Assembly (NCBI GenBank): GCA_030704615.1
Contig: CM060733.1
Coordinates: 64,604,001 to 64,668,000 of the forward strand
Reading direction: 5' to 3'
Length of the DNA: 64,000 nt
Source: Takakia lepidozioides
Lineage: Eukaryota; Plantae; Bryophyta
A model generated the notes under the pieces. The model did no database searches and was not told where the DNA came from. It saw only the letters and a list, made by a program, of their open reading frames with translations. A program made the position numbers and the translations under genes. Shown piece after piece: positions 7,072 through 42,404 of the stretch (the first letter of the stretch is position 1; each line of letters begins with the position of its first letter).

Positions 7072-7110
7072 TTTACCCCTCCCCCTCTCAAAAAGTCGTG
7101 TCCTTGCGGT

Positions 7111-10100: not shown

Positions 10101-10460
10101 GCAGTGCCCTGTAATCTTTTCATCTCTTCTACCAGTGCGTTGTACATTATGTCCGCCCATGCTACCTCTTCTCCTCTCAGGGCTTTGAGTAAATCCTCTG
10201 TGAAGGATCTGCTCAAATATTGTTGGTTCTGTTTCATGGCAAACAGAACGTTCAATACCTACCTCCATTAGCCCTGGGTACATGGCCTTGGTACAAGCAT
10301 AACCCTGAGTTTTAAAGAAACTCCCTTCTTGGAATAAGTCCCCTATTTGCAGTCTTGCCCTGTGCTCCTCCACATGCACCTAACCTGATGGCAATTCAAA
10401 CAATTGCTGTAGGTATAGGGGAGTAATTTCTAATTCAACTCTCTTCACCGTTGTTGCTCC
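7111..10460 (-). pseudogene. Additional 3' ORFs of the LTR retrotransposon (coiled-coil and plant-transposon-domain-like), frameshifted
   Basis: Overlapping ORFs 7111-8001, 7991-8641, 8560-8970, 8930-10255 and 10047-10379 lie directly upstream of the PPT. They have E/Q/K-rich heptad stretches and no gag/pol motifs. Confidence 0.55.
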
Positions 10461-11129
10461 CGTCCTAGGCCCGATAGGGCGAGCCTGTATTTTGCCGGGT
10501 GGAACGAAACCCTGAGAGCAGGTACCCGCTGATGCTTATTGATCGTATGGTCGAGAGGAGTTCTTTTTGTCTGTATGGTCTATGTACACATATTATGCTC
10601 TCTCTCGTATTCTTCATTTTGCTTGTATTCCATACATGCTCTTTGCCGCTCATCCGTAACTATTGGTGGATGGCACAATATTGTAGTTCAACGTTTCCAC
10701 AGCAAATTGCTTGAGTTGTAGTGATCTGAGACTGATTTGTTGCTATATATGCAATATGCATGAAAAATTCACTCAACCGGCAGGATGTAGGAGTTGAAGT
10801 TCTAGGGTATTTAGATCATATTCTAATTGTTCTGTCTAGATCATGAGGTAGAGATCAGTAGTTTCATGCGCTTGGAATGGTTGTGGTTTGTCAAAATTAA
10901 AGAAGTAGCAGGATTCATGATCAGTGTGCAAGAGGTTTCGTGTGTGTAACATATCAGTTCGAGCAGTCATCGGGTTATACGTATCTAGGTGACATTACGT
11001 CATTTGAGTTTATCATGGATGGCATTGACCTCAATGATGATTATGCCATACTCGGATCACACGCAATTACCAGTGATGTTAATCCATTTCATATTGAAGA
11101 TAGGTTTCAGCCTGATACACTTTTGCACA

Positions 11130-11212
11130 GGGGGGCTGCTATTTCATGAGCCATGAGCCATGAGCGGCATGAGCCATGAGCAGAGTCGTAAGTGTGGAAA
11201 AAAACATGAGCA
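11130..11212 (+). repeat. Left terminal inverted repeat with subterminal CATGAGC heptamers
   Basis: Near-identical to 34144-34212 and to the reverse complement of 30555-30589. Confidence 0.9.
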
Positions 11213-11593
11213 GCACTATTTTCCGGAAATGAGTGTCCGCGGGAATAGGGTTTAGGGTGCCACGGTCATAGGGGGAGAAGGACCTCCCGATGAAGGAGGT
11301 TCGGCAATGTTATTTAGAATTATATATTGAAAGGCAATGTTTCGCGAATGGTAGGGTGGTACTGCTCTGTACAATGGGGGCCCATTTCAGCCTACCAGCC
11401 ATTTGCAAAATCCACCCACACTCCCAATCCCAAACGAAATGAGCAATGACGCATTCTCGGAACGATGGACACAGAATAGAATAAAAAGAGGGCACAATGA
11501 GGTTTTTATTGATCCACATGAATTGCATTTGAAGCACGTCTACTGTGCTGATTGTGCCATCAAATCTTGAGCCCTGTGCCTACTGAATACAAG

Positions 11594-12157
11594 TCACGTT
11601 GTCAATGGGACTTCGACTGCTCTCAGAACTAGCTCATGAGTCATGGGGCTCCTCCATGTAAAGTCGATTGCAGCCGTTGTACCGCCCCTAGTGATGTTCA
11701 CCACAATGTCCTGCCCTTCAATCATACCACCATCGAATATGGAAATCTTCACGTTTTCGTCGTCCACACCAATGCGAATGTCCCCATACAATGGAGAAGA
11801 GGAGCGCACTCCTCGAGGAGAATAGGTCTCTCCGATGGAGTCCACCCACGTCCAGTGGCAGCAGTTCCACCGCAACAGCATAGCAGTGCGCCTTCTTCTG
11901 CATGGGTGACCGTCGTAGCTGGGAAAATCGGAATCGAGGATGCGCAGGAGCCACGGACTCCTCAGACCAAGATCGTCACCCGCCCCTCGAAGGCGTAGTG
12001 GCCTACGATATACTCAAAAGCCACCAATGTTTCCACAATCGAACCAGTATCTTCTGTAATCTGTGTACCAGATAACAATGTCTCCCGATGTGGCCGAATA
12101 CATTGCATAATCGATGCCTCCAAAGGGGCAGTCGTCCCGGTTCCGGAAGCACGGCAT
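11594..12157 (-). pseudogene. Transposon-encoded ~190-aa unknown protein (RWNCCxWT family), frameshifted
   Basis: MPCFRNRDDCP...SGDIVIW and LLRWNCCHWTWVDSIGE...DGGMIEGQDIVV...ELVLRAVEVP align by eye to the intact ORF 35689-36267. Confidence 0.7.
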
Positions 12158-12779
12158 CCTTGCAAAGGAGGACCTGAGGACGACTTGGATGCCGATGACC
12201 TTGCGGACAGCTACGAAGCCCTTAGATTTGGAAAAGATACGAAGCGGAAGAGCAGTCCGGCCTCCAAAATGGAGCATCTGGGTCACACGTACCCACCGAC
12301 GGAGGTGGAACGTGTTCATCACGCCAGCGGTGGATGAAGCCATACATCTTTCTCATCAACAAGTTATAGTTTGAGATCTGCCACCGAAGTCCATCCCCCG
12401 GATGGAAATTCGGCGGCCGCATTTACATCGAAGAGGGGATGGACTTCGTCGTGTCCAGTGGCTATCGGCCCACCTGGCAGTGAGTGCCCATAGTTTGCAT
12501 GGCAGGGTAGGAAACTGAAACGGCTACATTCATGCAGCAGCCAATCTTCATCGGTCCAGGATCCTGTACGGGGGAAATTTAAATGTGCCCTGGAGTGTGC
12601 CCTGGAATGTACCTCACTTCTGTATGACTGTGTTTCATTGTGTTGAATAACTCTCGGATTTGGCCCACTGTTTACAATTTGATGTCTCATTTCTACATTT
12701 GTCTGTCGGTTTGAATAAAGCAGAGTAACCGGTATGTGAGTCATGTGTCAAGAATATACCAAGTAACGCCATGTCGGAC

Positions 12780-13595
12780 ATTGAAATGCGGCACCCGCAT
12801 TTCCATGTCGGCATCGAAATGCGGCGCCGCATTTCCATGTCGGCTTGAAATGCGGCGCCGCATTTCCATGTCGGATCGAAATGCGGTGCCGCATTTCCTG
12901 TCCCATCGAAATGCGGCACACGCATTTCCATGTCGGACATCGAAATGGCACCGCATTTCCATGTGGGACAAGAAAATGCTGTGCATCATTTCCGTCCAGG
13001 TACACGAAATACCAACACGGGTCTATAAATTGATCAGAAAACGAGGTTGGCATTGCAAATGCGGCGACGCATTTCCATTTCCAGCTTGCAATGGAAACTT
13101 CTTTTTGGACAAGGGAATGCGGTGCCGCATTTCCGTCCAACACTTCGAAAAGTGCACCTATTTCCGACCAGCGCGATGGAATGCGTTACCGCATTTCCGA
13201 GAGAGGGTCTGCAAATGGACAAATTGCGATGTCCGTTCTGGAAATGCGGCGCCGCATTTCCATGTCCGTCATCGACTTTTTTTTTACAATGGAATGCGGT
13301 GCCAATTTTTGCTGATGGGCCTGCAGTTCGAACAACGACCATCCCCAATATGGAAATGCGGCACCGCATTTCAATCCCGCCATGTCGGCCTCCTTGTTCG
13401 ACCTCCTTGTTCGACCTCTGTAAGCGTGGTGGCATCCATGCAATGAGCGGGAGAGGCCAAAACTGGCGTGTGGACAAAGGAAATTTTGGAAATGCGGCAC
13501 CGCATTCCCATTTCAGATTACTTTTTACTATGCCAACATTGAAATGGAAAATTAGTCCCTCCCCTGTTTTGGAAATGCGGTGCCGCATTTCCAAG
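12780..13595. repeat. Array of type-I palindromes GGAAATGCGG(CG/CA/TG)CCGCATTTCC; the first six units are about 31 bp apart
   Basis: Copies start near 12783, 12816, 12847, 12878, 12908, 12942, 13056, 13113, 13178, 13240, 13352, 13487 and 13571. Confidence 0.9.
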
Positions 13596-13775
13596 AGGTT
13601 CTTAGAGTTGCCAAATTTTGGAAATGCCCTGACCCATTTCTGATTTTGGGAGCGTCCTGGTTTGGGCGATTGTGTGGCTGGAATGCACACTGGAGAGGGT
13701 CACAATGTCGGGCAGAATTTTCTTTATATACTGTGGAAGAGAATTTACATTTACAGAGACTTCATTAAAATTCTA

Positions 13776-16700
13776 TTAATCTTGAAAATCATCGGAATCC
13801 TCATCCCTGTTCTAGACTGTCCTGCTCCTCCTCCACCCCCTCAGTGCCTCTCTCATCTCCAGCGGACTGCTCGTTGGCCAGGCTTTCGAAAATCCCATCT
13901 TCCCCTTGCGGAACTGTCCATCTCACCTCCGTTTGGGTCGTCTTCCTCCCTGTCTGCGTCGCTCTCATCCGCTGAATCACATATGTACTTTCGTACCCGT
14001 CTACCTGTCTGAGCTGCTGCCAACTCTTTCCTTATCCTTCTGTCCTCCCTAGCCCTCTCCAAAATCTGCTCTACTTTACTGGGATTCTCACTTCTTCTAA
14101 TCGCTGTATTTGCGAGTTTAGCTGCATAACTAGGAAGGGAGTAGTCCCTCACCGGGCTCGTCATGAAGTCGGCCCTCGCAAAGAACGGGACATTCTTCCT
14201 GGCAGGAAGTGTAGGCCCTACATGTTTCGACCCGGACCCTGCAATCCTGCACATGACAATCATCAACGAGACTAATGAGAACCACAGTCGGGAAATTCCT
14301 TTGACATAATGACCCAGAAGGCTTTGCAAACTTACAATGTTTGCACTCACTCGTATTCCGGGTTCTCCTCTGCATCAATGTCCACTGTGTCTTCCTCGGA
14401 CTCCGACGAATCCGAGGAGACTTCCGCTCTGTCGGGAGCCTTCACATTCCGTTGCAGCCCCTCCAGATGGGATCCCCACACGGATGAATCCTCCTCGTAG
14501 GCAAAGAGGTGCCGGTCGGAAAACCGCCCAGCCCACATTGAGGCACCTGTTACAATGCCATCCACACATTACCACATGGCGCTTCAGATGTTGCGAACTA
14601 CATCCTAACGAGAATTTGCAGAACAGCAGAGATCAAGATTCTGCATACCTGTCCCACAGATGAGGTCCAGCACTGTGCCCTCCACGTCTGTGCATGTCTC
14701 CATAATTGTCTGAATGAAGGCAGGGCTCCGAGTCCGTGAGTACCGCAGGGGTTCCGTTGAAGTGAGGCTATGAGGGAGAAGTTCCTTGGGAACGTTGTTG
14801 AACAGAACGTTGTAATCGAGTGGGTCGCAGTTGGGTCAACCTTTCCTCCCTCCTTCCGGAAAGCAAAGGTGGAGTTTTCCTTCACAAAGCAGTATGCATC
14901 GAACTGCTTCGTCTGCATACACAGGGGAAAACGATTAGAAACCGAATGCGGCACCGCATTTGAAAGCACCCAAGCAAATGAATGGACGAGTGCCAGTGTC
15001 GTAATCACCTTCTTCCCTTCCGACCGAAGGCCCAGTGTGTTGATGCACGTCCACTTCTTTTTCAGAATCGGGACGGCGCTCTTGCGGGTCCACTTCGCAA
15101 TTCCTGTCTGAGTGTTTTTTCCTCTGCTCGCCAGGACAACCACACAGCCTCTGTCGTCCAACACCATGCGGGCAAGCCCGAATCCTTTCTTCCAAAAGTC
15201 CTCCGAGTACCTGTTCCAAGATGGCAAAGCTTGCAGTCCTTCCACAGGCTCTCCGTCCGGAATATCCAAGATGATCATATCGCAAGACCACTCGGTGGCA
15301 TTTCCGCCCCTCCTACAATCCTTGTCTGCACACACCCTCTCAAAGAACGAGACCATATTCTGAAATCCTGGGGTGTCGGAAGGCTCTTCGGCAGTCGCCT
15401 TCTTCAGTGCTCTGCCCTTCAGACCCTCCATGGTCTTCATGTATGCCAACTTGGCTGCCCGTCCATCCAAAGCCGCCAAGAAACTCTCATTTACACACTG
15501 GACTACAGTTTCGGGAGCCACTTTCGGCCTCTTCATTTCCACCGGCTCGAAAGGGTGCCCCCCTGGGGGGTTGAAGAGTGCCTTCTTTGCCGAGCCAGTT
15601 CTCGTGCCTCTCGTGACAACGGTGGGCACAGGGGAGGCAGCCTGCGTTTGGGGGGGTGGGCTGGTTGCAAAGTCTCCATCGGAGTCCTCTTCCTCACCCT
15701 CTTCCTGAACAGGCTGTTTCTGCTTCTTCGTTTTGGCGGGTGTCACAACAGCTGCTCCTTGCTGGCGAGTCCTCTTCTTCGACCCCTTCTGTTGGGCCTG
15801 CACAGCTGCATCCACCGTCTTTTGTGCCATCTCAGCTGCCTTTCTGGATTCTTCCAGAGCAGCAGATTCCTTTGCCGACTTTGGCCCAGCAGGGACACGT
15901 CTTTCCTTTCTCTTCTCTTCTGCCAAGGCGTGCAGATCTTTCTCAGACTCGTCAACAATACCGCCAGACATGTCCAGGTACCACGGGCATCCAACGAGAT
16001 GCGCGGGATGCCATTGTTTCTGCATCTCGGGTGTGTAGACACAGCTTGGGCCCGCCACGGTCCAAGCCATGAAGAACGGGGGCTCTTGAGCCAGGGCCCC
16101 TGTCTGAAGGAGCACGTATTTCATATACCTGCAAGGCAGTCAGCATGCGTGAGCAAAAGTTGAGACCAACCTACTGGCAGAGTGCCACCGAAAACATAAA
16201 ATGCGAATGCGGTGCCGCATTTCCGAGACAAACCTCGTAACCAGGCTTCGCATACAAGGGCAGCTGTGCTTCACCTGTAAACAATTCGCATTGCAGCTTT
16301 CCCCCGCTCCCTCCTGATGTGTAAACTCCACGCTCCTTCTTGCTGTCTGTAGCTCTCTGGCGAAAAGGTTGTCCTTGTACGCACATCTGAAACGTGTCAC
16401 GTAGTCTTCCAATGTCTGTGTTCCATCCCATTTGACGTACAAGCCGAACGAATTTGTGTGCATTACGACTTGCTCCTTCGCATTCGACATTACCTGCCAT
16501 TCCCAAATGCATTGTCACGTAGCAGTTCAGGGAATTCATGTCAGAAAAGCAAATCTGGGGAAGTACCTTGAATTACCTGGAACCACCAAGTCATACGGTT
16601 GAGCCACACATCCACTGCAGGGTCGGAAACTTCCAGTGGAAAAGACCACATTGTCCTTATGCTCTCGGATGCATTCCAGATCGACAGCCACCGTGTCTGC

Positions 16701-18900
16701 CATTTCCGATCCAATGTCAGTGGCTGGAAGAGAGTGGCTATTGCTAGGAAGGAAATTCAGTGCATTGAAACCTCACCTTCTCTTTCGCCTCCACACATGC
16801 CGTTGAGAGGTGATGCAGTTTCTCCAATTGCATGGTCGGCTGCATGGCCCGAGAATAGTGTTTTGCAATCTCGGGGATGAAGTCCTTTCCAAGTGCCGGA
16901 TCTGCAATTGCCACCAGCTTCACAAGCTTTGACTTGTATTTGGTTCTGGACTTGACACCGGCTTCCTTCAAGTGCTCAGTCAATGACTGCAACGTTTTGA
17001 CCTGCCCCTCACTTTCCATGAAGAAGCGTTTGGCATGGGCCAAATCCAGCTTGATGTTTGACTGCCAACAAAAACATGCAGAAGCGTTACATTCGATTCA
17101 TGTGGAAACATTACTGGAAATTGGGGAAGGATGAGCAGAGGGAAATTGGAGCACGACTTACTTCGTATATCACCTCCACCATTCCATCCATAGTGAGACG
17201 ATACCATGTCCGGTCTGTTTTTGCAACGGCTTTCTGAATGAGCTCCGGCTCCAGCATTTCCGCAAACATCTGCGGATCAGTAAGACCAGTTTTCCTCACC
17301 CTGTACAGCATATGTGCCATGTGGGTATGCACGTACGCATTCTCAGTGACCCTGCAAGGCACACTCTCCAGTTCAGTACACGGAAGCACGGAATCAAACC
17401 AGAATGGAAACCGAAATGCGGCACCGCATTTCGAATGTGCTAGGGAGGGTATGAGTATCTTACGAGTTGAGGTCCGCCATGGCATTCTTGAGCAGGGAGG
17501 AGTCTGCCGCCTTCACCTTGAGGATGACACACTCCACCATGTAATGCCAGCCAATGTGCTTGGCATGGTTCTGCTTGATGTACTCCCACCAGGCGAGAAG
17601 TCGGTGATTCCCGTCCCACACAAAGAACATTTTACCCGACATATGGCCGAAGTCGGGATCACCCTTCAGCGTCGCCTCGAATTCGTGGTTGCGAGTGTGC
17701 CAGTGGGTATCCCACGTTGACAATTCATCGGCAGTGGGTCCACGGGTTTCGCCGTCCTCATTCTCTATGGAAACGTAAAACGCTGCCGATCCCAGACGGT
17801 ACCCTTCTCGAAATGCGAACTTGAGCTTATCCACATCTCCGGGAAGGGCCTGCCTGACGATGGGAAGGGAGACCATGCGACAGAGTGGGATTCGAAGAGT
17901 CCGCTGGAATACCCTGCTGCCCAGAACTCTGCCAATGCTACTGTGTGTCTCCTCCAACATTTTATCCGCTGCACTTTTGAAATCCTCCGGAGACATGTCT
18001 GTAGGTGCCGGTAGTGGCTGAGCAGCTGGAGCATCCTCAACTGGAGCTGCACTCTGGGGCCTGTGTGCGGGCAATTCTGCCATTGCAGAGGCCTCCTCCG
18101 GGCCTGCTAGCTCATCGGTGGTGAGGTCTGCCTGCGAACGTTCAGCGGCAGCACCCTCCTCCGGTACCAAATCGAGATCAACGGTCGATCCCATTGCCTT
18201 CGCTGCAGCAGAGTCGGCCCCAACATCTGCAGGCGGGAAATCCTCCAGGAACTGAGCTTCAGCTCGTGGAAGCGGTTTTGCGGGAGATTGTTCGCCCGTC
18301 GCCCTGATTGCCTTCTGCTTCCTCATCCTTGCAGGTGAAGGTGTCTGCTGCAATAGAATCTGTCTTCTACCCTGCTGCTTCATTCGCGTTGGGGGGGGTG
18401 AATCGGCCTGAGCCGGTTCAGAAGCCAGTAGAGGGACGGGCTGCTTCTTCTTCGACTTTGCTGGAGAAGGGCCCGACCCCTGCTGGCGATTCTCCATGAT
18501 CGAAGAACGCGAGTCGATCTCTGAGACTTTGAACTTGCCCTTCGAAGACGCGTCTTTGAATCGCAGAGGGCTAGGCCCGGCAGGAATACCCGCGCTCGGG
18601 GATCGGGTGGGTGTACGTGCTGCAGCTAGCTCCTCGGACTCTTCCTGCGGCTCTTCGGATTCCTGCGATCCCTCCAGCACGTCCACCTTTCCTGTTAGGC
18701 ATGCAAACATGTTCTGCATTCAAGTCTCCTAGCATTCAGTCTAAGAATTACAGAAGCAAAATGGGGGGTTCGGTGCTCGATCAGCTGCGCGCAGCCCGAT
18801 CGCATGGAGCTCTCACTGGTGGCTGGGTTGCCTGAGTGGCCTGCTGCTCGGAGATGGCAATCTCCTCCTGTAGACGCATCTGCTTCCTCCCCTTCGGCAT
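13776..18900 (-). CDS. Multi-exon gene: disordered N-terminus + ParB/Srx-like domain + beta-class N4C/N6A DNA methyltransferase-like domain
   Basis: ParB-like MFFVWDGNHRLLAW (about 17590-17632). MTase motif IV-like CDMIILDIPDG (about 15252-15284). RSPAFIQTIMETCTDVEGTVLDLICGTG (about 14648-14731), followed after an intron by ASMWAGRFSDRHLFAYEED, matches the order motif X / motif I / motif II. GT-AG introns at 17352-17463 and 17062-17161. The full exon structure, start codon and intactness are not established. Confidence 0.75.
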
Positions 18901-19335
18901 TGGCCTACGTCCGAAGTATAATTTCCGGAGCTTGCGACGAGGTCTCCTGTCTGGTGCACGAACTCCCCCCCCTCTCAGGTTCGAGCATAAGAAGAACAGA
19001 GAGAGGGAAAAGGGGCAAAGAGTGCAGATGGAAAGGGCGCGAGAGGGGTGACTGAGGAGACACGACAAAAGTAGATGAAACGGCGGTGATGCACCACTTG
19101 GGTTCGAAAGGTTGGACGAAAGTGTCTCCTCGTGGAGTTTGCGTCATTACGAAATTCGAATCGTTGAGGGTACGCCTGCCGTCCGAAAACAAACATCATT
19201 ATCCAACGGTCAGGCCGCGCCGCCTCATGCCCCTTCAGTCAGATAGAGTGCCGACATGTGCAGCAATTCCGTTGCTCCACGTGTTCACATTTCAAGGCAT
19301 TTCCGTCCCAGCGTCTGATGAGTTGGAGCGAGAAT

Positions 19336-21037
19336 GCGAATGCGGCGCCGCATTTCCGTTAAGTACCATCACGAAGCTACACATCCGTACTTGTTGGAAG
19401 AAAATGCGGCACCGCATTTCCGTTCCACCTTCACATACCTTAGTTGTTGAACGGAAATACGGTGCCGCATTTCCGTCCCACAGCTCCATGTATGAGATTC
19501 AGAAGGGAAATGCGGCGCCGCATTTCCGTTCCCACTTCACATACGTTAGTTGATGAATGGAAATGCCGTGCCACATTTCCGTTCGGGAAAGTATAGAGGT
19601 CTCACCTGGACAGAAATGCGGTGTCGCATTTCCGGTCTGGAAAGGTTGAAGGTCTCACATGGATGGAAATGCGGCAACACATTTCCGTAGCACAGCTCCA
19701 GGCCGAATATACAAAACGGAAATGCGACGCCGCATTTCCGTTCGAGAATGTCGGAAGGTGCGACTCGAACGGAAATGCGGTGCCGCATTTCTGTACCCGT
19801 TGCGCACGATTTTCAGTCAGAATGGAAATGCGGTACCGCATTTCCGTTCTGTAGAGTATTAACGTCCGACGCTGGCGGAAATGCCTTCCCGCATTTTCGT
19901 TCCACAGCTCCATGCCTCACATACAAAACGGAAATGCGGCCGCATTTCCGTTTTGGAATGTCGGATGGTGGGACTCCGACGGAAATGCGGTACCGCATTT
20001 CAATTCCGATGTTTCAGGATATTTCATCAGAACGGAAATGCGGTGCCGCATTTCCCTTTTAAATCTAATACATTCCGTTCAGGAATGTTGGGAGGTGCGA
20101 CTCGGATGGAAATGCGCTGCCGCATTTCAGTTCCGATGGTTCACGATTTTCAGTCAGAACGGAAATGCGGTACCGCATTTCCGTTCTGGAATGATGGTAG
20201 GTGCGACTCGGATGGAAATACGTTGCCGCATTTCAGTTCCGATGGTTCACGATTTTCAGTCAGAACGGAAATGCGGTGCCGCATTTCCGTTCTGGAATGA
20301 TGGTAGGTGCGACTCGGATGGAAATACGGTGCCGCATTTCAGTTCAGATAGTTCACGATTTTCAGTCAGAACGGAAATGCGGTGCCGCATTTCCGTTCTG
20401 GATAGTTTGAATGTCTCAACCGGTCGGAATTGCGCTGTATGAAGCTGTCGGAATCTTACTCGGCTCCAAACATCAGATACAAAATGGAAATGCGGCGCCG
20501 CATTTCCTTTATGGAATGTGGAAAAGTGCGACTCGGACGGAAATGCGGTGCCGCATTTCTGTTCCCGTTGTTCATAATTCTCAATCAGAACGGAAATGCG
20601 GTACCGCATTTCCGTTCCACCTTCACATACCGTGCTTGTTGAATGAAAATGCGGTACCGCATTTCCGTTCTCGAGAGTATGAATGTCTTTTAAGGACGGA
20701 AATGTGCTGCAGCATTTCTATCCCTCAGCTCCATGCATCAGATACAAAATGGAAATGCGGCGCCGCATTTCCGTTCTGGAATGTCGAAAAGTGCGACTCG
20801 GACGGAAATGCGGTGCCGCATTTCTGTTCCCGTTGTTCATAAATCTCAATCAGAACGGAAATGCGGTACCGCATTTCCGTCCCACCTTCACATACCGTGC
20901 TTGCTGGATGGAAATGCGTTACCGCATTTCCGTTCTGGAGAGTATAAAGGTTTCCCCCGGACGGAAACTCGGTGCCGCATTTCCGTCGCTCTGTTGCATG
21001 ACCAAGATGCAATACGGAAATGCGGCGCCGTATTTCC
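19336..21037. repeat. Phased palindrome array: about 31-32 copies of a 22-bp palindrome at a 53-bp period with variable ~31-bp spacers
   Basis: Starts at 19400, 19453, 19506, 19559, 19612, 19665, 19718, 19771, 19824, 19877, 19930, 19981, 20034; then 20108 to 20426 and 20486 to 21016 in 53-bp steps. Confidence 0.95.
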
Positions 21038-21466
21038 GTCCACCAGCAATCGACAGAATCACTCGGGACGGGAAATCTGGAACCTCAATGGGTTGCATTG
21101 TTCCGAAACAACACAATTGCGGCCAGTCTTGATGAGCACAACTTGGTTGTCTGACCGTTTTAACCAGCAGTCCTGGCACTTGTCAGTGCGAACGTTCCTG
21201 TCTGCACCGAGAATACTGCTGGATCCACCCTCAGGAGAAACTGTCAGGAGATGTTATTTCGTCGCCGAATCGGCCATCATTGTCCTACTCACTGGCTATG
21301 GAATCAAACCTCCCACCTTCATGCATGTAGCTTGAAACAATACTTTCCACTTCAATGTGCGACTTCCAATTGTCGATGGACTCCGCAGATCCACTTAGAT
21401 GGTGCCTGTGAGCCTTGGTCTGTCGCTATACTGAACCTCGCACTTGCCAACTCCGTGCGGTGTTCG

Positions 21467-24400
21467 ATGGCTCCGAATTCCTACGCTATAGTTTGCTGTC
21501 CTCCGCAACTTGGGAGAGCCTGGATCCCAAACGAGGGAGGACTTTGCAGAGTGACTGAAACTTACCTTTGTTCCAAATTCAAGCTCAAACCGGGCACAGT
21601 TTATTTGGAAGAAGAAAGGAAGGATGTTCCTGGACAGGTTGACGAGACCATTGTCGTGCTAGGTAACGACGGAGGTTGCGGAATCGAATGGCACGTTCCC
21701 CCGTCAGACACCATCCTGTACCGAGCTGTGGGAATGCCCATTCCCTTTCCGAATCAGTCGCTGCCCACACCATCCACAAAGGAGTCCGGAAACCGAGAGG
21801 CGGCCACTGCCAACAGAGAGGTATGCAACGATAATCATTCCCGACCTGGACCGTCAAGACCCTCCATAGCTTCTCGTGTGGACGTATTCGACATTTCCGA
21901 CGAGGAAGATGATTGCATTGAGGTACCCATGTCCTCCACACGGTCGTTCAAATCCGGCATGGACGTCTCTGTAGGTGCTACGCATGTGCCCTCGAGCATA
22001 ACTCCAACCCGGTCCATTGTGCAGCTCCTACGACAACATCACCTCGATGGTTCTCGCTCCGAGCTGGCTGCTCTCGACTATGCCAAATTCCCAGTCAGAA
22101 AGGTAACTTTTCTGCCTCCCGAAGTCGATGGCAATGTCATCTTTCGAGTTTCCACCTGTTTCTTCGTCAAAGAAAGCCTCCGGGATGTTAACAGACATGG
22201 ATCGAAAGCATGACGGACACCCCTGGTGTGTGACGAAGACCAGTAGCACGAAAATTGCTGATGGTGTTCGTGTACGATATGTCCTCTGTGCGGGGAAGCT
22301 GAGGTGCCTCAATCCCACCTGCTTCCACTTTCTCTCCAAAGGAGGGCGGAGAAACGAGACGGATTGGACTGGCACAACGCATCATCCATTCATTGTCTCC
22401 AGCCAAGCTCCTGCGGGTTCTTTCAAGTGTGCACATTGCAAAGAACCACCGACGTGCATGTCCATGTGCAGAGCCAAGCAATATTACGTAATCCATTTGC
22501 TCCCGGACTTGACTAGAGCTTGCATACACGTTGGGGTCCACTGCCACCCCTTGGCGAGAGGCAACATGCGTGAGGCTGTGCAGGAAGCACACGACATCAT
22601 AAAAGAGGAGGTGAAATTGAGCCCCGGAGCCAGACCAAAGCAGATTCAGCTGAAGGCAGCCCACAAGATTGCTCTTGGCAAAATCATGTCTGAAGATGGT
22701 TCCGACCGAGAGCCCTTGACCGAAGACGAGATGCGTGACCTCTTGGAGTCCGTCTCGCACGTTTGTAGTCCGAATGTGCGGAATCACATCGTATCTTGCA
22801 AGCAGGAGTTCGGCAGGGGGTCGGACATGTACTCAATCCTGGAGGTGAAACGAATGACTGGATATGACTACATCCAAGGTAGCAGGTTTCCAGGGCAAGG
22901 CAGCGAATCCGATCGTTGTTACATTTTCAAAATGTCGACGTGTGGGCCTGGGAGTGGAGTCGACTTGGTCACTCGCATGACAACTGGAAACTTGTCGAAT
23001 GCTTGGGTGATGTTTGATCACATCAAGCGAATTACAAACCATCAGTGGGTGACTATGGGTGCGCATGTTTATGACTATCACTCCAAGAGGCTCATGACGA
23101 TTGCAATCTGCGAGATGAAAGGGGAGGACACACAGTCCGAGATGCATCTGTGGGAGGGCATAAACGAGCAGATGGCAAGGGCGGGATTGCCAGAGCCCAA
23201 TTTCAGGGGATTCATGGCAGACAACGCTCAGGCCAACTGGGCAGCGGTGCGGCGTGTGTACGGTGAGGACCCCAATGTTCCAATGGAGGGGAAAGAGAGA
23301 TCCTGTGGATTCCATTGGATGCAGAGTCTATCCCACTACACTACCAAATTTGTTGCTAGCTCATTCCAGGCTGAACACCGTGTCCTTTGTACGGCGTGGA
23401 AGGATGCACCCACATTTGATGACGCGGAGGTTAAGTTTGCTATCATCGAGGCTTGGTGGAACACGTCAGGTGCAGTGGAGACAACCAATCTGGGAGCATT
23501 GCACAGCTGGTTGGGGTGGTGGCATTTCGGTATCGACAGTTCGGACAGTACATGCGGGAGGTAGGCTGCTGTCATTTTCGTTCATTGTCTTTCTGTTACG
23601 GACATTTCGATTGGTCCTCACCATTGTTTGTGTCCTTCTAGGAGCGGTGCTTGGATTCCGACACGGACATGCCGAACACGAATATGGCAGAATCGGTCCA
23701 CTCCTCCTGGCGAGCGTCTTCTGCCGCACATCTGGTGGACGTAGTGACGGCCACAACGGAGGACATCGACAGAGCAATCATGCAGCAAGCCACGTACTAC
23801 AAGTTCCTGAGCGGCAAACAATGGGGCTTTGGGCCGGACAGGGAGGAATTGTTGGTACGAACAGCTTCGAGGTCCAAGAATCCAGTGAAATGGGCGACAG
23901 CATTGCGAGAGAAGATCAAAGGGACGCCTCTGCACCGCAGAGGTGAACACCTAGAGGGGGACGTCCGGACTCGCCCTGTCAGGCGGAGGATTGAAGAGGA
24001 ACCCGGGTGCGAAGAGGATTCCTGGAGATCCGACAGGAACATTCGGACAGCACCTCGAGGTCCCGTCATGTTGCCGCACAATGTGTCTTCCAGCAGTGGA
24101 AGCCCAAGAAATTCCAGATCGCCGTCGCCTTCAACCGGGGATTTCGTGCAACAAATTCCCACCGCTCCCTTGCCCCACATTCCGCCCGCTGTTATGCAGT
24201 ATGGCCAAGCCATTGTGGAGACGACTGTGTCTGCCTCACAGTGGAGAATTGCTCGCACAAAGCCGTCGTTTCGAGGAAGGTGTTCCGCAATTCGTGTGGA
24301 TACACGGCAACGTTGTTTAGAGATGATAAGGAGGAATCCAGATGGGGCTGTCCCTGCTCCTACTTTTACAGGAAGATTTGTCCATGCAAAGTTTGCGGAG

Positions 24401-25072
24401 GCGACAACCACCCAGTTCTGGTTCTGCAGGCACGACATTATGACTTGCGTGTATGGAAAGCCCAAGTACGGCATACAGACAATGCCAGAGGCTCCCCCGG
24501 TGTGGCCGGTGGAACCAGGCTGCGATCTGAGTCAGGTTGAGGCCGACGCCCTTACCGCCGCAGGATTTCGGATGGTGCAGCGCACTGACGTCCCCAGACA
24601 ACCATTTCCGCTTCCACAGCCTCCACCACCGACCCCTGTGAGAGCAAGAACAATGGAACACGACAGCTCTAAGCATCCTACACACCGTTGGGGGAAACCG
24701 AAGAGGCGGCGACCTCCCTCAAAAGTGAACGAGACAAGGATGGGGAATGCACTTCGGATGAACTGTACAATCCAGAGCTCGACAGAAGTGCCCCCACCAG
24801 GATTCGGGCGTGTGTATCAGATGGCCACGGCGGGCTCAGCTGTTCGCAATGAGGTGTACACCATCACCATTTCAGAATTACCCACCTGCAATTGCACCGA
24901 CTTCCAGATCATGGCGAACAAGGGGGCATCATACTGCCCTTGCAAGCATTTGTACTACGTGTACCTAAAGAGACTCCGTTGTAATTCCACAACTCATCAC
25001 TTCATACATGCACCAGGGTTGAGCCCCCAGGAGGTTCACACTCTTCTGAATATGGATCCAGGGGACCAGTGA
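21467..25072 (+). pseudogene. MULE-like DDE transposase with GCM/WRKY-like Zn domain and C-terminal SWIM finger; two frameshifts
   Basis: CAGKLRC..C..CAHC..C..HVGVHCHP, then WVMFD, FMADNA, CGFH, TNMAES (D-D-CxxH-E) and SWIM CNCTDF...CKHL. Frameshifts near 22145 and 23526; intron about 23561-23641. Confidence 0.85.
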
Positions 25073-25819
25073 GCTTGGCTTGCGGTCCACATACAATGGT
25101 ACGCCCATCCTTTTCGGATAGTAGAACTGTACTGCTGCCAGTACCTCAGACTCTGGCCACACAAAGGTCCGACATATGTCTTGCCTACCAGTAACCTGTT
25201 TTGATCGAACTAAGATATTACTATATCGTTCACTTGTTTCCACGTGCATGTATTTTTGTATGTTGGAGGGTTCATGTTTTTCTGCTTTCCGAAAACTTGC
25301 TCTCCTCATTCGACCTCCGACAAGGAAATGCGGCGCCGAATTTCCAAGTGTCGTCGTAGGTACCCCCAGAGGCGGCCTTCGCCAACACCAAACCGCTCCG
25401 AAATTTCGCACGTGCGAACCCTAATGCGGCACCCTATTTCCCAGTTCAGTTGCAAACCTTTCCCGCCGAATACCCGAAGAAGACAGAATTGTGAAGTACT
25501 GCAGACTGTATTGGTGCAGACTCCATTGGTTCAATCGCGGCAAAAGGGTCAGCTTCATTCCAATGTTAAGGCATGTAAAACCGCGGAATACTCTATACAG
25601 GCCAGTATGCGACGTCCTTTTGCAGTGGTATACTGGATTTCCCGTTGCACGGTCACTTATTTCCATGAGCGGATCTATAAAACCATGAGCGGACTTGTTA
25701 CTGACGACATATCTTCGCCGCATTACATGATCTGGAACGTCCAAAAACGGCAAGGTCAAATAAAAAACTATTATTTTAATACTTGTTTAATCTGCCGCAT
25801 TTCCAAATTTGGAGGAGTC

Positions 25820-25924
25820 CGCTCATGAAATCCGCGTATCTTAGACTTCGGCTCACCGCTCATGCGGCTCATGCGGCTCATGGCTCATGGCTCATGGTTT
25901 CTGCTCATGAAATAGTAAACCTCC
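25820..25924 (-). repeat. Right terminus of copy A (degenerate TIR plus GCTCATG repeats)
   Basis: GCTCATGCGGCTCATGCGGCTCATGGCTCATGG...GCTCATGAAATAGTAAACCTCC. Transposase-homologous sequence (PTCMAVCNAKQYY) begins immediately after it. Confidence 0.8.
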
Positions 25925-28438
25925 CCTACGTGTATGGCAGTGTGCAACGCCAAGCAGTACTACGTCGGGACCGTCGGCCCAGCGTGCACCAGAGCATGCA
26001 TTCACATTGGAAAGCATGACCACCCCGTCGTCAGAGGCAATTGCAGAGTCGCTTTTCAACAAGCCCACGATATTATCAAGGAGGAGGTGAGGTTCAGGCC
26101 GGGAGCAAAACCAAAGCAGATACAGCTCGCATCCGCACATAGAATTGCAATTGGCAGAATAATGTCGGAGGACGGAAGCACAAGAGAGAAGCTGGGCGAG
26201 GGGGACATGAAGGAGCTGCTGGAAGCTGTCTCCCATGTGTGCAGCCCCAATGTCAGGAACCACATTGTCGGCTGCAAGAAACGAATTGGAAGAGGATCAG
26301 ACATGCTCTCCATCTTGGAAGTAAAGCGCACATGCGGCTACGACTTCATCCAGGGCAGCTTCTTTCCTGGTCAAGGCTCAGAGACAGACAGGTGCTTCAT
26401 ATTTAAGATGTCAACGTGCGGATTGGGGAGCGGTGTTGATTTGGTGAAGCGGATGACCAGTGGAGACCTCTCAAATTGCTGGGTCATGTTCGACCACATC
26501 AAGCAAATTACCAACCACGATTGGGTGACAATGGGGGCACATGTATACGACCCACATTGCAGAAAGTTGATGACCATTGCTATCTGCGAAATGAAAGGAG
26601 AAGACACAGATTCGGAGTTGCATATGTGGCGCGGAATTAATGAGCAAATGGTGAGAGCGAAGTTGTCCCCTCCCGATTTTAGGGGCTTCATGGCTGACAA
26701 TGCCCAGACGAACTGGGCTGCAGTGAGGAGGGTATATGGGGACGACCCAAAGACTCCAATGGAAGGTAAGGAGAGATCTTGCGGGTTCCACTTCATGCAG
26801 AGTTTGACGCAAAACACGGAAAGGTTTGTGGCGTCACGCCACCGGCAGGATCATATCAGTATGTGCCTTGCGTGGAAAAATGCAAATTCCATCGACGAGT
26901 CGGAGACCGAGTTTGCAACCATACGCGCCTGGTGGGTGTCTTCAGGGGCAGTGGATGTGAAAGATCAGCCAGAACTGCAAACGTGGCTTGCGTGGTGGCA
27001 CTATAGATTCCGCCAGACTACATGAAACAGATAACACATTTCTGTACTTGACAATTGTTCTGTTTTGTGCTTGGACATTCTCCACAATGAGTGACATTTC
27101 TAATTTCCTTCAACAGGACATGAGCTTGGAGGATGACACGGATATGCCGACGACGAACATGGCCGAATCGGTGCACTCTTCCTGGCGTGCTTCCTCTGCG
27201 TGGTCTTGCTGGGAGAAGGCGTGGGACGCAACATCGTTGCGCCCCGAGGTTGAGTGCGGATGTTCATATCTGATCTCCATGAATCCCCGTCGCCTCCGGG
27301 CATGTCCTCAATTCTTCTCTTCACCGGCCGGCTGCGGACATCGCCCTCCAGGCAGTTCCCCCGACTGTGTAACGGCGTTGACCTTATTGTTTCCCGCAAT
27401 GCAGCAGTCCATTTTGGGATCGGTCGAACGATGCGCCGCCCTCATCAGCATCTCCTGCTTGTCTGTTCCGATACCCCTTCTCCTGCAGCATCCATGGAAT
27501 CGCTGCCAGACTCGGGACAACATGTCGAGGATGAGCATGCTGCTCCTATTATCGTTACCCAATACAACATTCCAATCGTGGAGCGAGATGTGTCGGCCTC
27601 GCAGTGGAGAATTGCACGGACCCGTCCGTCATTTTGTGGCAAATGTTGTGTTGTTCGTGTTGACACCAACCAGAGATGCAATGAGATGATTCGGAGGAGC
27701 CCGCAGGGCGGTGTGCCTGCCCCTTGCTTCACAGGGAGATTTGTGTGCGCAAATTTTGTGGAGGCCACACTGAAGGAGTTTTGGTTTTGCAGGCACGACA
27801 TCATGTCGTGTGTGTTTGGCAAGCCCAAGTATGGTGTACAAGGCATGCCTGAACCACCAGCAGTCTGGCCTGTGGCAACTGGTACAGATCTTACCGTGGA
27901 GGAGGCAGACGCTCTAGGAAGTGCAGGGTTTCGACTGGTGGAGAGGACAGACGTTCCACAAAATCCAATTCCCAGTCGTCATCCTCCTCCCACGAGAAGC
28001 TCTTCGCCCCGCATACCGGTGGGTGACCCCGCAGCTTGGCCCACCCATCGGTGGGGGAAATTGAAAAGACGGCGGCCACCAGCAAAGGCAAACGACACCA
28101 GGAAGGCCAACGCTCTTGCAATGCCCTGCATAGTGCAAGGTTGCAGGGATGTTCCTCACCCCGGGATGGGGCGCATATTTTAGTTGTCAACAGCCGGGTC
28201 TGCTGCGCGCAGTGTTGTGTATGCAATCACGGTTTCTCAGTACCCAGCTTGCAACTGTGAGGACTTCCTTGTTATGGAATCGAAGAATGCAGCATACGTC
28301 CCTTGCAAACACCTTTATTACATTTTTCTGAAGCGCATGAGTTGCATATCCGCAGTGGACGTCTTCATCCATGCTCCAACATTGAGTTTCAACGAGCTGC
28401 ACAAGGCCCTACGGCAGGATACAGATCGGACTGCTTGA
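25925..28438 (+). pseudogene. Second MULE/SWIM transposase, 5'-truncated, with internal inversion and premature stop
   Basis: Colinear with 22450-25072 (WVMFDHIK, FMADNAQ, CGFH, TNMAES, CNCEDF...CKHL). Segment about 27200-27490 is inverted; stop codon at about 28180. Confidence 0.85.
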
Positions 28439-29123
28439 CATTCCACATTCGGGAAGGAAAAAGTGGCAATTATATTACATTCATCTTCTTGCACCCTATT
28501 TTTTTGTGAGGAATTATACACTTGGTGGTGCCGCACCGCCATGGCTCCAGGTGCATTTTGGTGCCGCAATACATGAGAATGTGGTTTTTGGCCGTGAATG
28601 GCATGGGCATGTTTTTTTTATTTTGGTTATGTCTATAAATGGATCCGAGGAAAGCATACATTGTGTGGAGATACATGGGTATTGTGGCCTATTTCAGCGC
28701 CGTTATTGGTCTGTATATTGCATAGTGCTTCCTTGTTACTGCTCTTCATTCAATTTGTGGTGATTTCGCAGCCCATCCTGGAGTTTTTGTCCACCTTTAT
28801 GAGAAGACTCCAATTTGCTACCAATACATTGTCAGTGTTCTGCAAATGTGATGCCTTTACAAGATTGCTAGTTTTGTGTCCCAGTGGGAAGGGTCCTACT
28901 GCACATTCCAGCATTTGCATACTGCACCTTGTGCAAACAACAATCCATACGACAAAGGACACGTCCCAACATACTGGTAGTGAATTGCAAAAAACCTTAA
29001 CAGAAGATTATCCAAGCATGTATATTCCCCATATGGCACAATGAAGCTACTTGATTTTTGAATCAAAATGTATGTGCCATGAGTGTCGGCGAGTCGAAAC
29101 ATGTCTACTCTAGCATGCATGAC

Positions 29124-29675
29124 CTATGGTCCCCTCGCCCAAGAAGAAGGAACTCGAACTGGCCTCTCAAGGACCTCCTGAGTGACCGGGTGCCGATATT
29201 TGAACAAAATGTCAGCGGTTTCTGTCGCCCGATTGAAACTAACGAGGATGTCGTGTTTATCGATAGCGCCCCCTTTGTAGAAGGACATTTTCACAGTGGG
29301 CCCTGTGTTCCCCTCCTCCTCATCCTCATAACTGAAGAGAATGTCCCCACTTTCCGAGCCAGTCCATCCACGCGTGAAGTTTTCACCTATGCACTCATCA
29401 TACGTCCACTCGCAACAATTCCAGCGATACAGCAACGCTGTGCATGATCTGTTCGGCTCCCACTCAAGCGGAAAGTCCAGGTCCATGATGCGTAGGAACT
29501 ACCTGCTCCCCAGCCGGGGTCCAGGAGACTCGTGCAATCCTGGAAGAAACTCCATTGCTCTCAACTGGACAAGTCGAGGATCGTCCCTGTAAACATCTAG
29601 GAAGACAATGATGTCATCTGCTTTCGGGACAATGACTCCCGTCTGGCGTCGATAGATGTGATTCGGGCACGACAT
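29124..29675 (-). pseudogene. RWNCCxWT-family small protein with one internal stop
   Basis: LRAMEFL, LLYRWNCCEWTYDECIGENF, GGAIDKHDILVS, EVLERPVRVPSSW; stop at about 29499. Confidence 0.7.
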
Positions 29676-29909
29676 GGCCTCACGACACAGCAAGAACTCA
29701 GAGCAGGGAGGAGATGGGCACAGCAGAGAAGAGTGAAGAGCAAAATGAGAGCGAGGCCGGCGGAAGAGGGATATATCATTGCTGCACTGCCAATGTCGTA
29801 TGCGGCAGAACTTCTATTTCCTCCGACATGTGTGCTTTTATTAGACAAATCCGCACCAGTTTCAGGAGAGTTTGCAAAACTCCCTCACCGTAAGGCGGGT
29901 ATTTGCTCT

Positions 29910-30330
29910 CCGGAGCCCAATTTCGGCGCCGTTATTGGATGGACTGCGGAAGCTTCAGCCGAGAATTTTGTTTCCGGACCCCAATTTTGGCACCGTTATT
30001 GGTTGCACTCCCCAGCCTTCAGCCGGGTATTTGGTTTCCGGACCCCAATTTTGGCGCCGTTATTGGCTGCACTCCGGAGGCTTCAGTCGGGTATTTGGTT
30101 GGCGGAGCCCAATTTCGGCACCGTTATTGGCTTCACTCCCGAGCCTTCAGCCAGCTATTTCTTTTCCTGTGCCCAATTACGGCGCCGTTATACCCAACCA
30201 TCCTGCACTTCTGCAACAGTACTATCCACAGTTATAGGTTGCCATTGCGTTTTCGGAGTCTGCAAACCCGGATCCTAATTCCGCTTGCGTCTCTTCCTCT
30301 GGGATAATTTCGGTGCCGTTATTGCCCAAA
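29910..30330. repeat. 64-bp tandem array with the imperfect palindrome CCAATTTCGGCGCCGTTATTGG
   Basis: Units at about 29919, 29983, 30047, 30111, 30175 and 30306. Confidence 0.9.
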
Positions 30331-30359
30331 ATTCAGTTTTTCTATGACCTGACCTGGCG

Positions 30360-36477: not shown

Positions 36478-37325
36478 GGAAATGCGGCACCGCATTTTCA
36501 TATTGGACCTTGAATTGTCCAAGCATGTCCAATCGCCAATGCTTGTCCATGTCCGTTTTGGAAATGCGGCACCGCATTTCCATGTCCGTCATCAAATTTT
36601 CTTATTGGACAATGGAATGCGGTGCCGCATTTCCATGTCCGTCATCAAATTTTCTTATTGGACAATGGAATGCGGTGCCGCATTTCCGTCGAAGGGTCTG
36701 GAATTGGACAATCAACGATGTTAGTTCTGGAAATGCGGCACCGCATTTCCATGTCCGTCATCAAAAATTTGTATTGGACAATGGAATGCGGTGTCGCATT
36801 TCCGTCCAGCAAGACGGAATGCCCTCACGCATTTCCGTCCAAGGGTCTGGAATTGGACAAACAACGATGTCTGTTTTGGAAATGCGGCGCCGCATTTCCA
36901 TGTTTGGCAATCGAAAGTTCTTATTGGACAATGGAATGCGGTGCCGCATTCCCGTCCAGAATCATGGAATGCGGAGCCGCAGTTCCGTCGATGGGTCTGG
37001 AGTTGGAAAAACGTCCATCTCCAAAATGGAAATGCGGCACCGCATTTCCATGTCCGCCATTTAAATAACGTGTTCGACCTCCGCATGCGGGGTGACATTT
37101 CCATTTACCTCCATGGAAGGAGCTGGGCAATTGGCAAAACTGCCATGTCGAAAACGGAAATGCGGTACCGCATTTCCGTTCGGCCAAACAGTTTCTGATG
37201 TCCAAACCATGAAACGGAAAATTGTTCTTGCCCCGGTTTTGGAAATGCGGTGCCGCATTTCCAAACGAGGTTTTTGCAGTTCCCACATTTCCGTTCCGAC
37301 ATGGAAATGCGGTGCCACATTTCTG
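36478..37325. repeat. Type-I palindrome array of copy C
   Basis: Copies at about 36478, 36560, 36613, 36666, 36729, 36782, 36878, 36932, 37028, 37156, 37241 and 37303. Confidence 0.9.
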
Positions 37326-39779: not shown

Positions 39780-41025
39780 CTCATGAATTTCGGCACCGAA
39801 ATCTGGATGAACATCTCTGTAATGTAACAGATTTGGAAGCCAGAGGATGAATTCTGGCGACAGAAATCGTAATTTGTTCACCTCATTAAACTGAGCAAGC
39901 ACCCGACGGATGGATTTTGGTGCCGAAATTCGGATGAACATGTTCTTCATGAAATTGTTTCTGCCCATAAGGGTTGAATTTCGGCGCCGAATTACGGATG
40001 AATGTGTTCGTGATTACAGTCATGATTCACCACGTGTCCGGATTTCGGTGCCGACATCCGAATGACAGTAATCTTGAATCGGCAGTAGGGATGAATTTTG
40101 GCGCCGAAATTCATCCTTACTGTCCGCAATGGGTAACTATAATATTACATTTTCTATGCGACGGATGAATTTCGGCGCCGAAATTCGTCCGAACCCGACA
40201 CTTACTTCTTGCTTCTGGATAATGTAATGTTCCGAAATTCGTTTGAAATAACCCATTCCGACGAAGATAACACGAATATTCTGCATTAAATGGAGAAATC
40301 GGCACATTCAACCCCATATGTCTTACAAAAGGCCGTTATCCAATGACGAAAGGGGATATTTTTTCATGTTGGGGGAAAATTAATTGCATTTTAGCCGTTG
40401 TTTTCATTTGAAACTGACAGTATCCATTAAGTTTTCATTTTTCGCACGGGACGTTGCCGCACATAAAGTATAATTCCGGTGCCGAAATTATAGTTAACTG
40501 TCCAGACATGGCAAGTCCAACAGGCATGGACAGCAACCGTGAGGGGCAATAATGGCGGCAAAGCGTAGCATGGTGCCGATTTAGTCTTCGCGCTGGATGA
40601 ATTTTGACGCTGAAATATGGATGATTTCACCTCGTCTACGCGCGGACGGAGATATTCTTAATGAATTTCGGCGCTGAAATATGGATGAAATGTGCCCAAG
40701 TGCAGCCGTCTCCACTGTCCCAGATTAATTCCGGCTCCGATATCCGACTGACAGGTTTGCTCATGACGGATGAGGACTGGGGAAGCGATGAATTGCGGCG
40801 CCGAAATTCATAAGTTTGTGTATGAAAGCACTTGCATATGATGAATTTTGGCGCCGAAATTCATCCGTCCGCTGATGAAACGTACCGACTTGACTGTTGA
40901 ATGTCATAGGCAGGGGATTTTCATGGCGGTTGGGTTTCATGATGTGCGGATATTTCATTCAATGTCGGCTGCTCCGGGAACAGCATCCGGTGAACGGAAC
41001 GGTATTTCGGTGCCGCAATTCGGAT
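39780..41025. repeat. Array of type-II palindromes (GGAT)GAATTTCGGCGCCGAAATTC(ATCC)
   Basis: Copies at about 39785, 39849, 39913, 39976, 40040, 40093, 40167, 40599, 40663, 40726, 40790 and 40843. Confidence 0.9.
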
Positions 41026-42345: not shown

Positions 42346-42404
42346 TAGCTGTTTCGAATGCCTCATCCACTGTATTACGGGGTAGCATATCCACTTTCTT
42401 TTGT

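Follow-up and report, generated by a model that had tools for sequence, protein, structure and literature searches.

A near-regular palindrome array between a ParB-like accessory gene and the transposase gene of a Mutator-like element in Takakia lepidozioides

The palindrome array of a 64,000-nucleotide stretch of Takakia lepidozioides DNA (contig CM060733.1, positions 64,604,001 to 64,668,000; hereafter the window) sits inside a 14.8-kb Mutator-like element, element A, which runs from 11130 to 25924, and is not a free-standing satellite. The two divergent genes between which a first-pass annotation of the sequence had placed the array are an accessory gene with a ParB-like domain and a transposase gene (Table 1). 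The sites are constrained in their arms, confined to non-coding DNA and different between element families at homologous positions. By a slight balance of probability, and from the combined sequence, structural and comparative analysis, we favour reading the array as a loading platform of the parS/sopC kind for the element's own ParB-like protein, which would regulate or shield the element in the manner of VANC.

Table 1. Features of element A and of the related elements in the window (positions are those of the window).
Feature	Position	Strand	Description
Element A, left end	11130..11215	+	G-run and CATGAGC subterminal repeats; other-flank contig joins at 11131
Small third gene	11594..12343	-	Broken in element A; no Pfam family
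Second array, element A palindrome	12782..13641	.	Upstream of small gene; spacings 30.5-32.5, 83, 58, 64, 63, 112, 136, 83, 49
Accessory gene	13850..18719	-	Spliced, exon borders approximate; frameshifted in element A copy; order: low-complexity N-terminus, ParB/Srx-fold domain, helical middle, putative amino-methyltransferase-like C-terminal part
Putative amino-methyltransferase-like part	14649..15311	-	DMIILDIPDG (motif IV-like), then LDLICGTG (motif I-like) in next exon
Single site	14942..14963	.	Accessory-gene intron; kept in copy C at 38335
Single site	16203..16224	.	Inferred intron of accessory gene
Single site	17412..17433	.	Intron after ParB exon
ParB/Srx-fold domain	17463..17960	-	G-N-H-R-x-x-A and conserved C-terminal Asn
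Main array	19336..21037	.	32 sites GGAAATGCGG-YR-CCGCATTTCC, 53-bp period, five spacer classes; between 5' ends of accessory gene and transposase gene
Decayed 33rd site	21070..21091	.	54 bp past last site; nearer consensus in other-copy contigs
Transposase gene	21251..25072	+	Encodes a GCM/WRKY-type Zn finger, a DDE core carrying CxxH and a SWIM finger; frame broken near 22142 and 23524; intron about 23562-23642; start uncertain
WRKY-GCM1-type Zn finger	22200..22560	+	7 Cys and HxGxHxH, nearly invariant in 44 sequences
Single site	25324..25345	.	After transposase stop
Element A, right end	25820..25924	-	CATGAGC repeats; joins into element B transposase gene; loose end after 25924, depth step
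Element B	25925-30592		CATGAGC ends like A; transposase piece 69% identical to A
Element B array	29917..30325	.	Quasi-palindrome CCAATTTCGG-YR-CCGTTATTGG; spacings 64, 64, 64, 64, 131
Copy C	34144-39235		Same family as A
Copy C array	36478..37324	.	Homologous to 12782-13641; spacings 82, 53, 53, 63, 53, 33, 63, 54, 33, 63, 128, 85, 62
Element D array	39783..41022	.	GAATTTCGG-YR-CCGAAATTC

One of the 32 palindromes of the main array is decayed (20426). The near-strict 53-bp period described in the first-pass annotation was recovered in 27 of the 31 start-to-start intervals, and the exceptions of 64, 74, 51 and 60 bp were those it had given. The 51-bp interval reflects a 2-bp deletion in a site core at 19938. 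The family is not uniform for this deletion, as contigs that retain both letters were present in 4/4 runs. The single 22-bp palindrome of that annotation is real as a recurring site, but the exact 22-mer occurs just 3 times in the main array and the centre varies. Each site consists of a 10-bp perfect inverted repeat around a 2-bp centre, with conserved GTTC/GAAC-like flanks beside it. The centres of the 30 full-length intact sites were TG (14), TA (7), CG (6), CA (2) and TC (1), which is pyrimidine-purine in 29. When up to 3 mismatches were allowed, the whole window held 49 matches to the palindrome vs. 0.00 in 100 shuffles.

Mean pairwise identity among the 30 full-length intact sites was 90% in the arms, 36% in the inner 23 bp of the spacers and 56% in the centre. 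The comparison of repeat with spacer conservation that had been proposed as a check gave 1.9 changes per site in the arms vs. 5.9 in the spacers on one minimum spanning tree of whole units, an arm rate about three times slower. The CpG of the arms was kept in 54 of 60 cases and a central CG was present in 6 of 30 sites; its loss may reflect deamination or tolerated YR variation. At least 11 of about 12 centre changes were transitions, and in the spacers the figure was 40 of 100.

The inverted-repeat form of every site would suit hairpins or cruciforms in RNA or single-stranded DNA. However, all 34 arm changes were one-sided and none was compensated on the opposite arm, which argues against a hairpin and fits recognition of double-stranded DNA. 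The element B site is merely a quasi-palindrome, and a loop would have no need of the pyrimidine-purine centre; we disfavour hairpins as a very improbable explanation. A constrained, uncompensated and phased palindrome with a restricted two-base centre resembles the site of a dimeric protein. The repeat-spacer look of the array recalls a CRISPR locus, a candidate that was rejected given mutually homologous spacers and the setting in a spliced plant transposon. Inverted alternating spacers were also rejected, at a reverse-complement inner identity of 28%.

Spacers of 31 bp make up 28 of the 31. The spacers as a whole fall into five classes with a within-class likeness of mostly 60-100% (lowest 17/31), two spacer pairs are identical, and there are higher-order duplications of 106 bp and 265 bp. 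The array thus expanded through amplification, and its units cannot count as independent. The claim that the spacers diverge while keeping their length thus held for length and needed amendment for sequence, since five related classes are present, and regularity among spacers related through amplification is partly inherited. Selection on spacer length, which had been suggested, is favoured by a deficit of indels and qualified by this inheritance. The spacers require at least 181 substitutions, and 5 indel events were seen among them vs. about 17 expected from the rate of 22 indels per 232 substitutions found in five stretches beyond the arrays where copies A and C align. That control contains coding DNA and is thus conservative, and unequal crossing-over acts in the opposite direction. 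The five events comprise a compensated pair and changes of +11, +21 and, next to the dead site, +7; of the long spacers, the two with intact sites on both sides are the +11-bp and +21-bp cases. In four contig runs, three of which are one sample, the best 12 of 34 indels in 18800-21600 included three in the 536-bp left flank that were present in 4/4 runs and one in the 1.7-kb array, the missing letters at 19938.

The unit length of a satellite can persist without selection through unequal crossing-over, which counts against a selected length. The array could accordingly be a neutral internal satellite, its period produced by slippage and unequal crossing-over and 53 bp an inherited accident. 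The five spacer classes, the 106/265-bp duplications and the identical spacer pairs are what such a history would leave, and off-phase arrays occur in relatives. We nevertheless consider a neutral satellite decidedly improbable: the arms are three times more conserved than the spacers on the same tree, with CpG kept, isolated intron sites persist and change with the family, and the unrelated spacers of element D show the same 53/64/74/127 values.

Helical phasing was evaluated by counting each distinct spacing once per family, with values within about 2 bp collapsed, gaps of more than 140 bp left out and both intervals around the core deletion left out. The pooled 24 collapsed spacings had a best period of 10.58 bp (p=0.006 vs. 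jittered spacings), and a scan of periods from 7 to 15 bp peaked at 10.5. The non-A families gave p=0.02, family A alone, collapsed, gave p=0.07, and family D alone gave p=5e-5 for 6 uncollapsed values. Phasing was not significant in family F3 or in the X-only (single-type) spacings of the L027 family (p 0.14-0.54). In 20 of 32 intervals of this family (loci L027, L028, L051 and L064) two other long palindromes, one of which also has a GG-YR-CC centre, alternate at 61.5-64.5 bp. This 63.5-bp alternation, which favours phasing, and the contrary arrays of L073 and L068 were found after the phasing test and stand outside its 24 values. Off-phase spacings were about 46.5 bp for the palindrome of L073 (1450-2100), 51 bp in palindrome arrays of L068 (4820-4980) and of L028 and L064 (about 2150-2520), and 58, 49 and 112 in the second array of element A. 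Phasing is a strong tendency among the families of the window and is not universal among relatives. The spacing of sites on one helix face, as proposed in the first-pass annotation, thus extends to other palindrome families near whole turns but fails for the L073 and 51-bp arrays. The inverted repeat around the L051 array was evaluated as a MITE and rejected, there being no target-site duplication.

The sites of element A extend beyond the main array. All five isolated sites are non-coding (P about 0.003, with approximate exon borders), and three of them lie in introns. In the homologous intron after the ParB exon, element A has an A-type site and element D a D-type site at the same offset from the donor. 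A bidirectional regulatory region, as had been suggested, agrees with the divergent position, but the same site also occurs in the second array and in three introns, so the site does not mark a bidirectional promoter only. At the corresponding positions related elements have other palindromes, whose intervals are mostly 53, 64, 74 or 127 bp. The layout of element D repeats that of A, with a transposase 5' piece (39236-39619, -), an array and a divergent ParB-like gene (41554 onward, +), and its spacings are 64, 63, 64, 64, 53, 74, 54, 250, 128, 64, 63, 64, 53 and 159. As palindromes differ by family at homologous positions, whatever reads the site must change with the element family.

This variation bears on a host factor or nucleosome positioning, by which the array would be an enhancer or an open-chromatin island for the divergent promoters. 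In A, B, C and D each gene does have an array upstream, as such a role would predict, and three 53-bp or three 64-bp units would come near a nucleosome repeat. One host factor could hardly follow arm sequences that vary between families in one window, however, and single sites are retained in introns. We regard the host-factor explanation as decidedly unlikely.

Element A has short, imperfect terminal inverted repeats, and both of its ends are backed by contigs with other flanks. The summed contig depth in run X1 was 9,300-29,200 over element A and 1,300-2,800 beyond 26,110; this is contig depth and not copy number, and with the many variant contigs it indicates a multi-copy family. Other copies differ from the window copy by single-base indels at 14923, 22142 and 23524, the positions of its frame breaks, and the window copy is therefore defective. 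The flanks of element A mismatched in a search for a target-site duplication of 8-10 bp. Only the right flank lies within the element B transposase, which makes the locus look rearranged. Among related loci of 5 kb or more, none contained a complete element having both its ends and a duplication. Element A ends in B's transposase finger (25924/25925), C breaks into D's transposase (39235/39236), and a piece of the small-gene region adjoins B's end (30592); such nested or fused elements suggest self-targeting or adjacent deletions. The small gene belongs to a beta-rich ORF family, with resembling ORFs at 29124-29498 (-), 34591-35142 (-) and 35689-36267 (+), that occurs in elements A, B and C and has palindrome arrays upstream in all three.

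The CpG observed/expected ratio was 0.71-0.98 in the elements, outside the two A arrays, and 0.43-0.44 in a PPR gene and two other mobile-looking regions. Recent arrival would also explain the higher CpG level of the elements. Between copies A and C, CpG positions showed 2.6-4 times more transitions in a biased count, which indicates incomplete shielding of the element from methylation.

The transposase had 87 relatives at E <=0.001. Its model (pLDDT 83, pTM 0.47) had ISCth4 as the best structural match (Z 10.0, rmsd 4.7, 186 aligned). Among 44 sequences, D304, D372 and C400 were conserved in 44 and H403 in 43. The C400/H403 pair (CxxH) begins 28 aa after D372, and the Mutator/MULE window is 15-45 aa; we infer that the third catalytic residue, Glu, is located in the next exon. 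Pfam had no match to the Zn finger and a weak match to the SWIM finger at the end of the transposase (E 0.02). The zinc ligands of the finger liken it to the animal GCM two-zinc form. The DDE core, the (C/D)xxH motif, the WRKY-GCM1 finger and the terminal inverted repeats place element A in the Mutator/MULE superfamily. A (C/D)xxH motif after the second Asp is also found in hAT transposases (PMC5499845).

The transposase could itself bind the sites through its GCM/WRKY-type finger, two fingers per palindrome, with the array acting as an internal transposition enhancer or in autoregulation of the two promoters. Its N-terminal part resembled WRKY18 (Z 6.5, 81 aligned) and the GCM domain 1odh (Z 5.3, 124 aligned), both middling scores, and its 5' end adjoins the array. 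The half-site ATGCGG agrees with the animal GCM site ATGCGGGT (PMC2172107) at 6 of 8 letters, but it is absent from families B, D and L027. The AtMu1 transposase by itself activates its family and lowers the methylation of that family (10.64898/2026.08.24.746577); Muta1 transposase binds its own terminal motif, and extra subterminal repeats raise the binding (PMC5499845). The ends of element A, however, carry another repeat, CATGAGC, which is common to A and B despite their different internal palindromes, and clustered palindromes are commoner in loci with a ParB-like gene. Binding of the array by the transposase is, in our judgment, unlikely.

The ParB-like domain at the end of the first accessory exon had 495 relatives, and its model (pLDDT 91) had the ParB/Srx fold in all of its top 8 structural matches among 48,161 chains, led by KorB (Z 7.9, rmsd 2.4, 90 aligned), with PadC (Z 7.0) and Srx (Z 6.8) also matched. 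A further structure search returned the same families with weak E-values of 0.006-0.1. The G-N-H-R-x-x-A stretch corresponds to the ParB N-terminal GxxRxxA motif. Its GNHR is kept in 46-49 of 49 sequences per position (G117 46/49, N118 49/49, R120 46/49), and A123 (39/49) and N165 (46/49) are also conserved. The nearest atlas cluster of the exon was DUF3723 (score 0.95, 181 of 256 features), and the DUF3723 Pfam HMM did not match the exon. No Pfam family matched any accessory exon; among the ORFs of the element only the weak SWIM match was obtained. A DNA-binding domain was not identified in the accessory protein, of which the ParB-like domain was folded. A separate wide structure search, with a 485-aa model, was swamped by the helical tail of that model.

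The assignment of the C-terminal part of the accessory protein as methyltransferase-like is weak. In the atlas the part scored 0.90 with 129 of 256 features in common, which is few, and its ten best named matches were all of one family or clan (N6/N4 methylase). PHROGs had no methylase match to it, and homolog searches with it had no matches. More generally, sequence searches against the PDB were uninformative and viral_contigs yielded no relative. We read DIPD and LDLICGTG against the beta-class N6A/N4C motifs, IV as (D/N/S)PP(Y/F) followed by I as FxGxG. The motif order would fit the beta class (IV before I), with DIPD as motif IV here and DVPF, DFPI or DGPN in relatives. A motif IV without the aromatic residue suggests an inactive enzyme, and the domain looks catalytically degenerate in the element A family. 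The ParB-like and methyltransferase-like domains were found within one protein in P0276 (DVPFG) and P0279 (DFPIG). In P0213, P0225, P0242, P0251 and P0283 a long helical region follows the ParB-like domain and the predicted product has no methylase-like part, possibly another accessory-protein architecture. In L027, a methylase-like exon with DGPNG (10882-11160, +) follows the transposase in the same orientation and is separate from the ParB-like gene, which lies upstream.

Metagenome relatives were examined in the best 80 of 314 related stretches, of which 32 loci have at least 4.3 kb upstream. A divergent ParB-like gene upstream of the transposase was present in 8 of these and none was seen in 24. 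Three or more clustered palindromes were found in 7 of the 8 loci with a ParB-like gene, between that gene and the transposase gene, vs. 6 of the 24 others. The association of palindromes with the gene is suggestive only, since five of the 8 loci are one family and several are near-duplicates. A strict de novo palindrome scan overlooked arrays in these loci, and looser scans recovered them.

Elements A and B have common terminal CATGAGC repeats and differing internal palindromes, from which we infer that the accessory protein, and not the transposase, is the reader. The ParB-like protein is thus the better candidate, its role as reader being marginally probable and that of the transposase rather improbable. 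Dimers of the accessory protein would load on the palindromes along one helix face, as SopB does on F-plasmid sopC. Speculatively, the loaded protein would spread along the element like ParB clamps, and the spread protein would keep both divergent promoters and the body of the element free of host silencing, as VANC does, perhaps through the methyltransferase-like domain. The fuller proposition, that land-plant Mutator-like transposons run a bacterial-style ParB/parS system on themselves, is one we regard as rather unlikely. By this proposition a nucleotide-gated ParB clamp, joined in one protein to an amino-methyltransferase fold, would load on phased, family-specific arrays, spread over the 15-kb element and mark or shield it against host 5mC silencing, and site and protein would co-evolve family by family.

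The kind of arrangement is, on our analysis, already known from the giant Plavaka DNA transposons of the red alga Bostrychia (bioRxiv 10.1101/2025.02.11.637652), in which an accessory gene whose N-terminal domain is ParB-like, PAG3, adjoins tandem inverted-repeat arrays and the accessory protein is proposed to bind and modify its own element. The preprint also places in the cassette a separate gene with SET that carries an N6-adenine methylase-like domain, and it reports homologous accessory genes in Chondrus Mutator elements. Element A resembles PAG3/PAG2 of Plavaka in its ParB-like accessory gene and adjoining inverted-repeat array. In contrast, Plavaka has an EnSpm/Plavaka transposase and a ParB domain fused to a 2OG oxygenase; element A is without both and is not a member. 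It also differs in its land plant host, its Mutator-like transposase with a GCM finger, and the joining of the ParB and putative methyltransferase-like parts in one gene. The word 'helical' is absent from the main text of the preprint, and the portion consulted describes neither phasing nor intron sites nor a family-specific change of site.

VANC binds amplified motifs in non-coding DNA and strips methylation across the element (PMC5735166, PMC10398659), and VANDAL is named in the Bostrychia preprint as the sole transposon known to bind and modify itself. Element A shares with VANDAL/VANC the family-specific motifs amplified in non-coding DNA. The VANC motifs of Arabidopsis, however, are 8-9-bp non-palindromic words, and 'spacing' and 'palindrom' are absent from the accessible text of PMC5735166, which leaves the mechanism from VANC binding to element-wide effects open. 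The accessory protein of element A is ParB-like with no Pfam match, and anti-silencing, shown for VANC, is here only proposed.

The likeness to sopC/SopB (PMC3177203) lies in tandem whole-turn units (43 bp, four turns), a palindrome to which a dimer of the ParB family binds, a centre of two bases varying within one base-step class, and decayed terminal repeats. As described there, the centre in sopC is purine-pyrimidine, its spacers are conserved and segregation involves a ParA partner, whereas element A has a pyrimidine-purine centre, diverging spacers and no ParA gene seen, and is a eukaryotic transposon. A ParA ATPase was absent from the ORFs scanned (34 of the 139 window ORFs and the element ORFs), so element A is not a partition system.

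DUF3723 is a conserved accessory gene of the Starship giant fungal transposons (bioRxiv 10.1101/2021.12.13.472469), which differ in using a tyrosine recombinase; DUF3723 is given no target array in the text available from that source. With MULE/IS256 transposons (PMC1702500, PMC5499845) element A shares a Zn-finger DNA-binding domain, a SWIM finger, subterminal repeats, an ISCth4-near core and CxxH, but its finger is of a two-zinc GCM-like form that PMC1702500 gives as animal-only. Iyer et al. (PMC4738411) catalogue eukaryotic amino-methylases, and the portion of the catalogue consulted holds no land-plant transposon ParB fusion. The Marchantia DN4MT1 motif is TSPPY, unlike the accessory protein of element A. 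The literature covered, which lay largely outside subscription journals and Repbase, held no land-plant Mutator-like ParB-methylase element and no helical phasing of such arrays. The land-plant Mutator version, its phasing and its family-specific sites thus appear to be new.

How a transposon recognizes and protects its own copies is an open question, and a ParB-type clamp, if true, would provide a spreading mechanism. The locus supplies a precisely defined candidate site, a rule of phasing and, within a single window, three families of sites, so that the proposed binding of ParB-like transposon proteins to their own elements can be tested directly. Transgenes would also benefit from a programmable pair of protein and site able to keep plant DNA active.

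The window contains further repeats and genes. A further palindrome family at 31295-32135 (TGTTCGG-CG-CCGAACA, 16 bp, 5-6 copies, spacings 103, 108, 56 and 128) is not phased (p about 0.5) and resembles bacterial parS. Five copies of a palindrome-like unit, GTGAATGTCGT-CA-ACGAAATTCAC, were found at 60140-60850 with spacings of 106, 268, 206 and 121. An ORF at 42928-44646 (-) had a weak PCIF1_WW match (E 0.00026), and a similar piece lies at 32742-32945. PCIF1-derived methylase domains occur in DIRS1 retrotransposons (PMC4738411), and 42350-45400 may be a DIRS1-type element with a PCIF1-derived domain. The region 5250-10500 (-) has long coiled-coil and gag/pol-like ORFs, a 10-bp tandem repeat at 6784-6948 and CpG depletion (0.43), and is probably an LTR-type retroelement. 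A PPR-E-DYW gene at 48142-51690 (+) has very regular 303-bp repeats (7.4 copies, 86% match), with decayed copies at 53013-53546 and 58010-58370.
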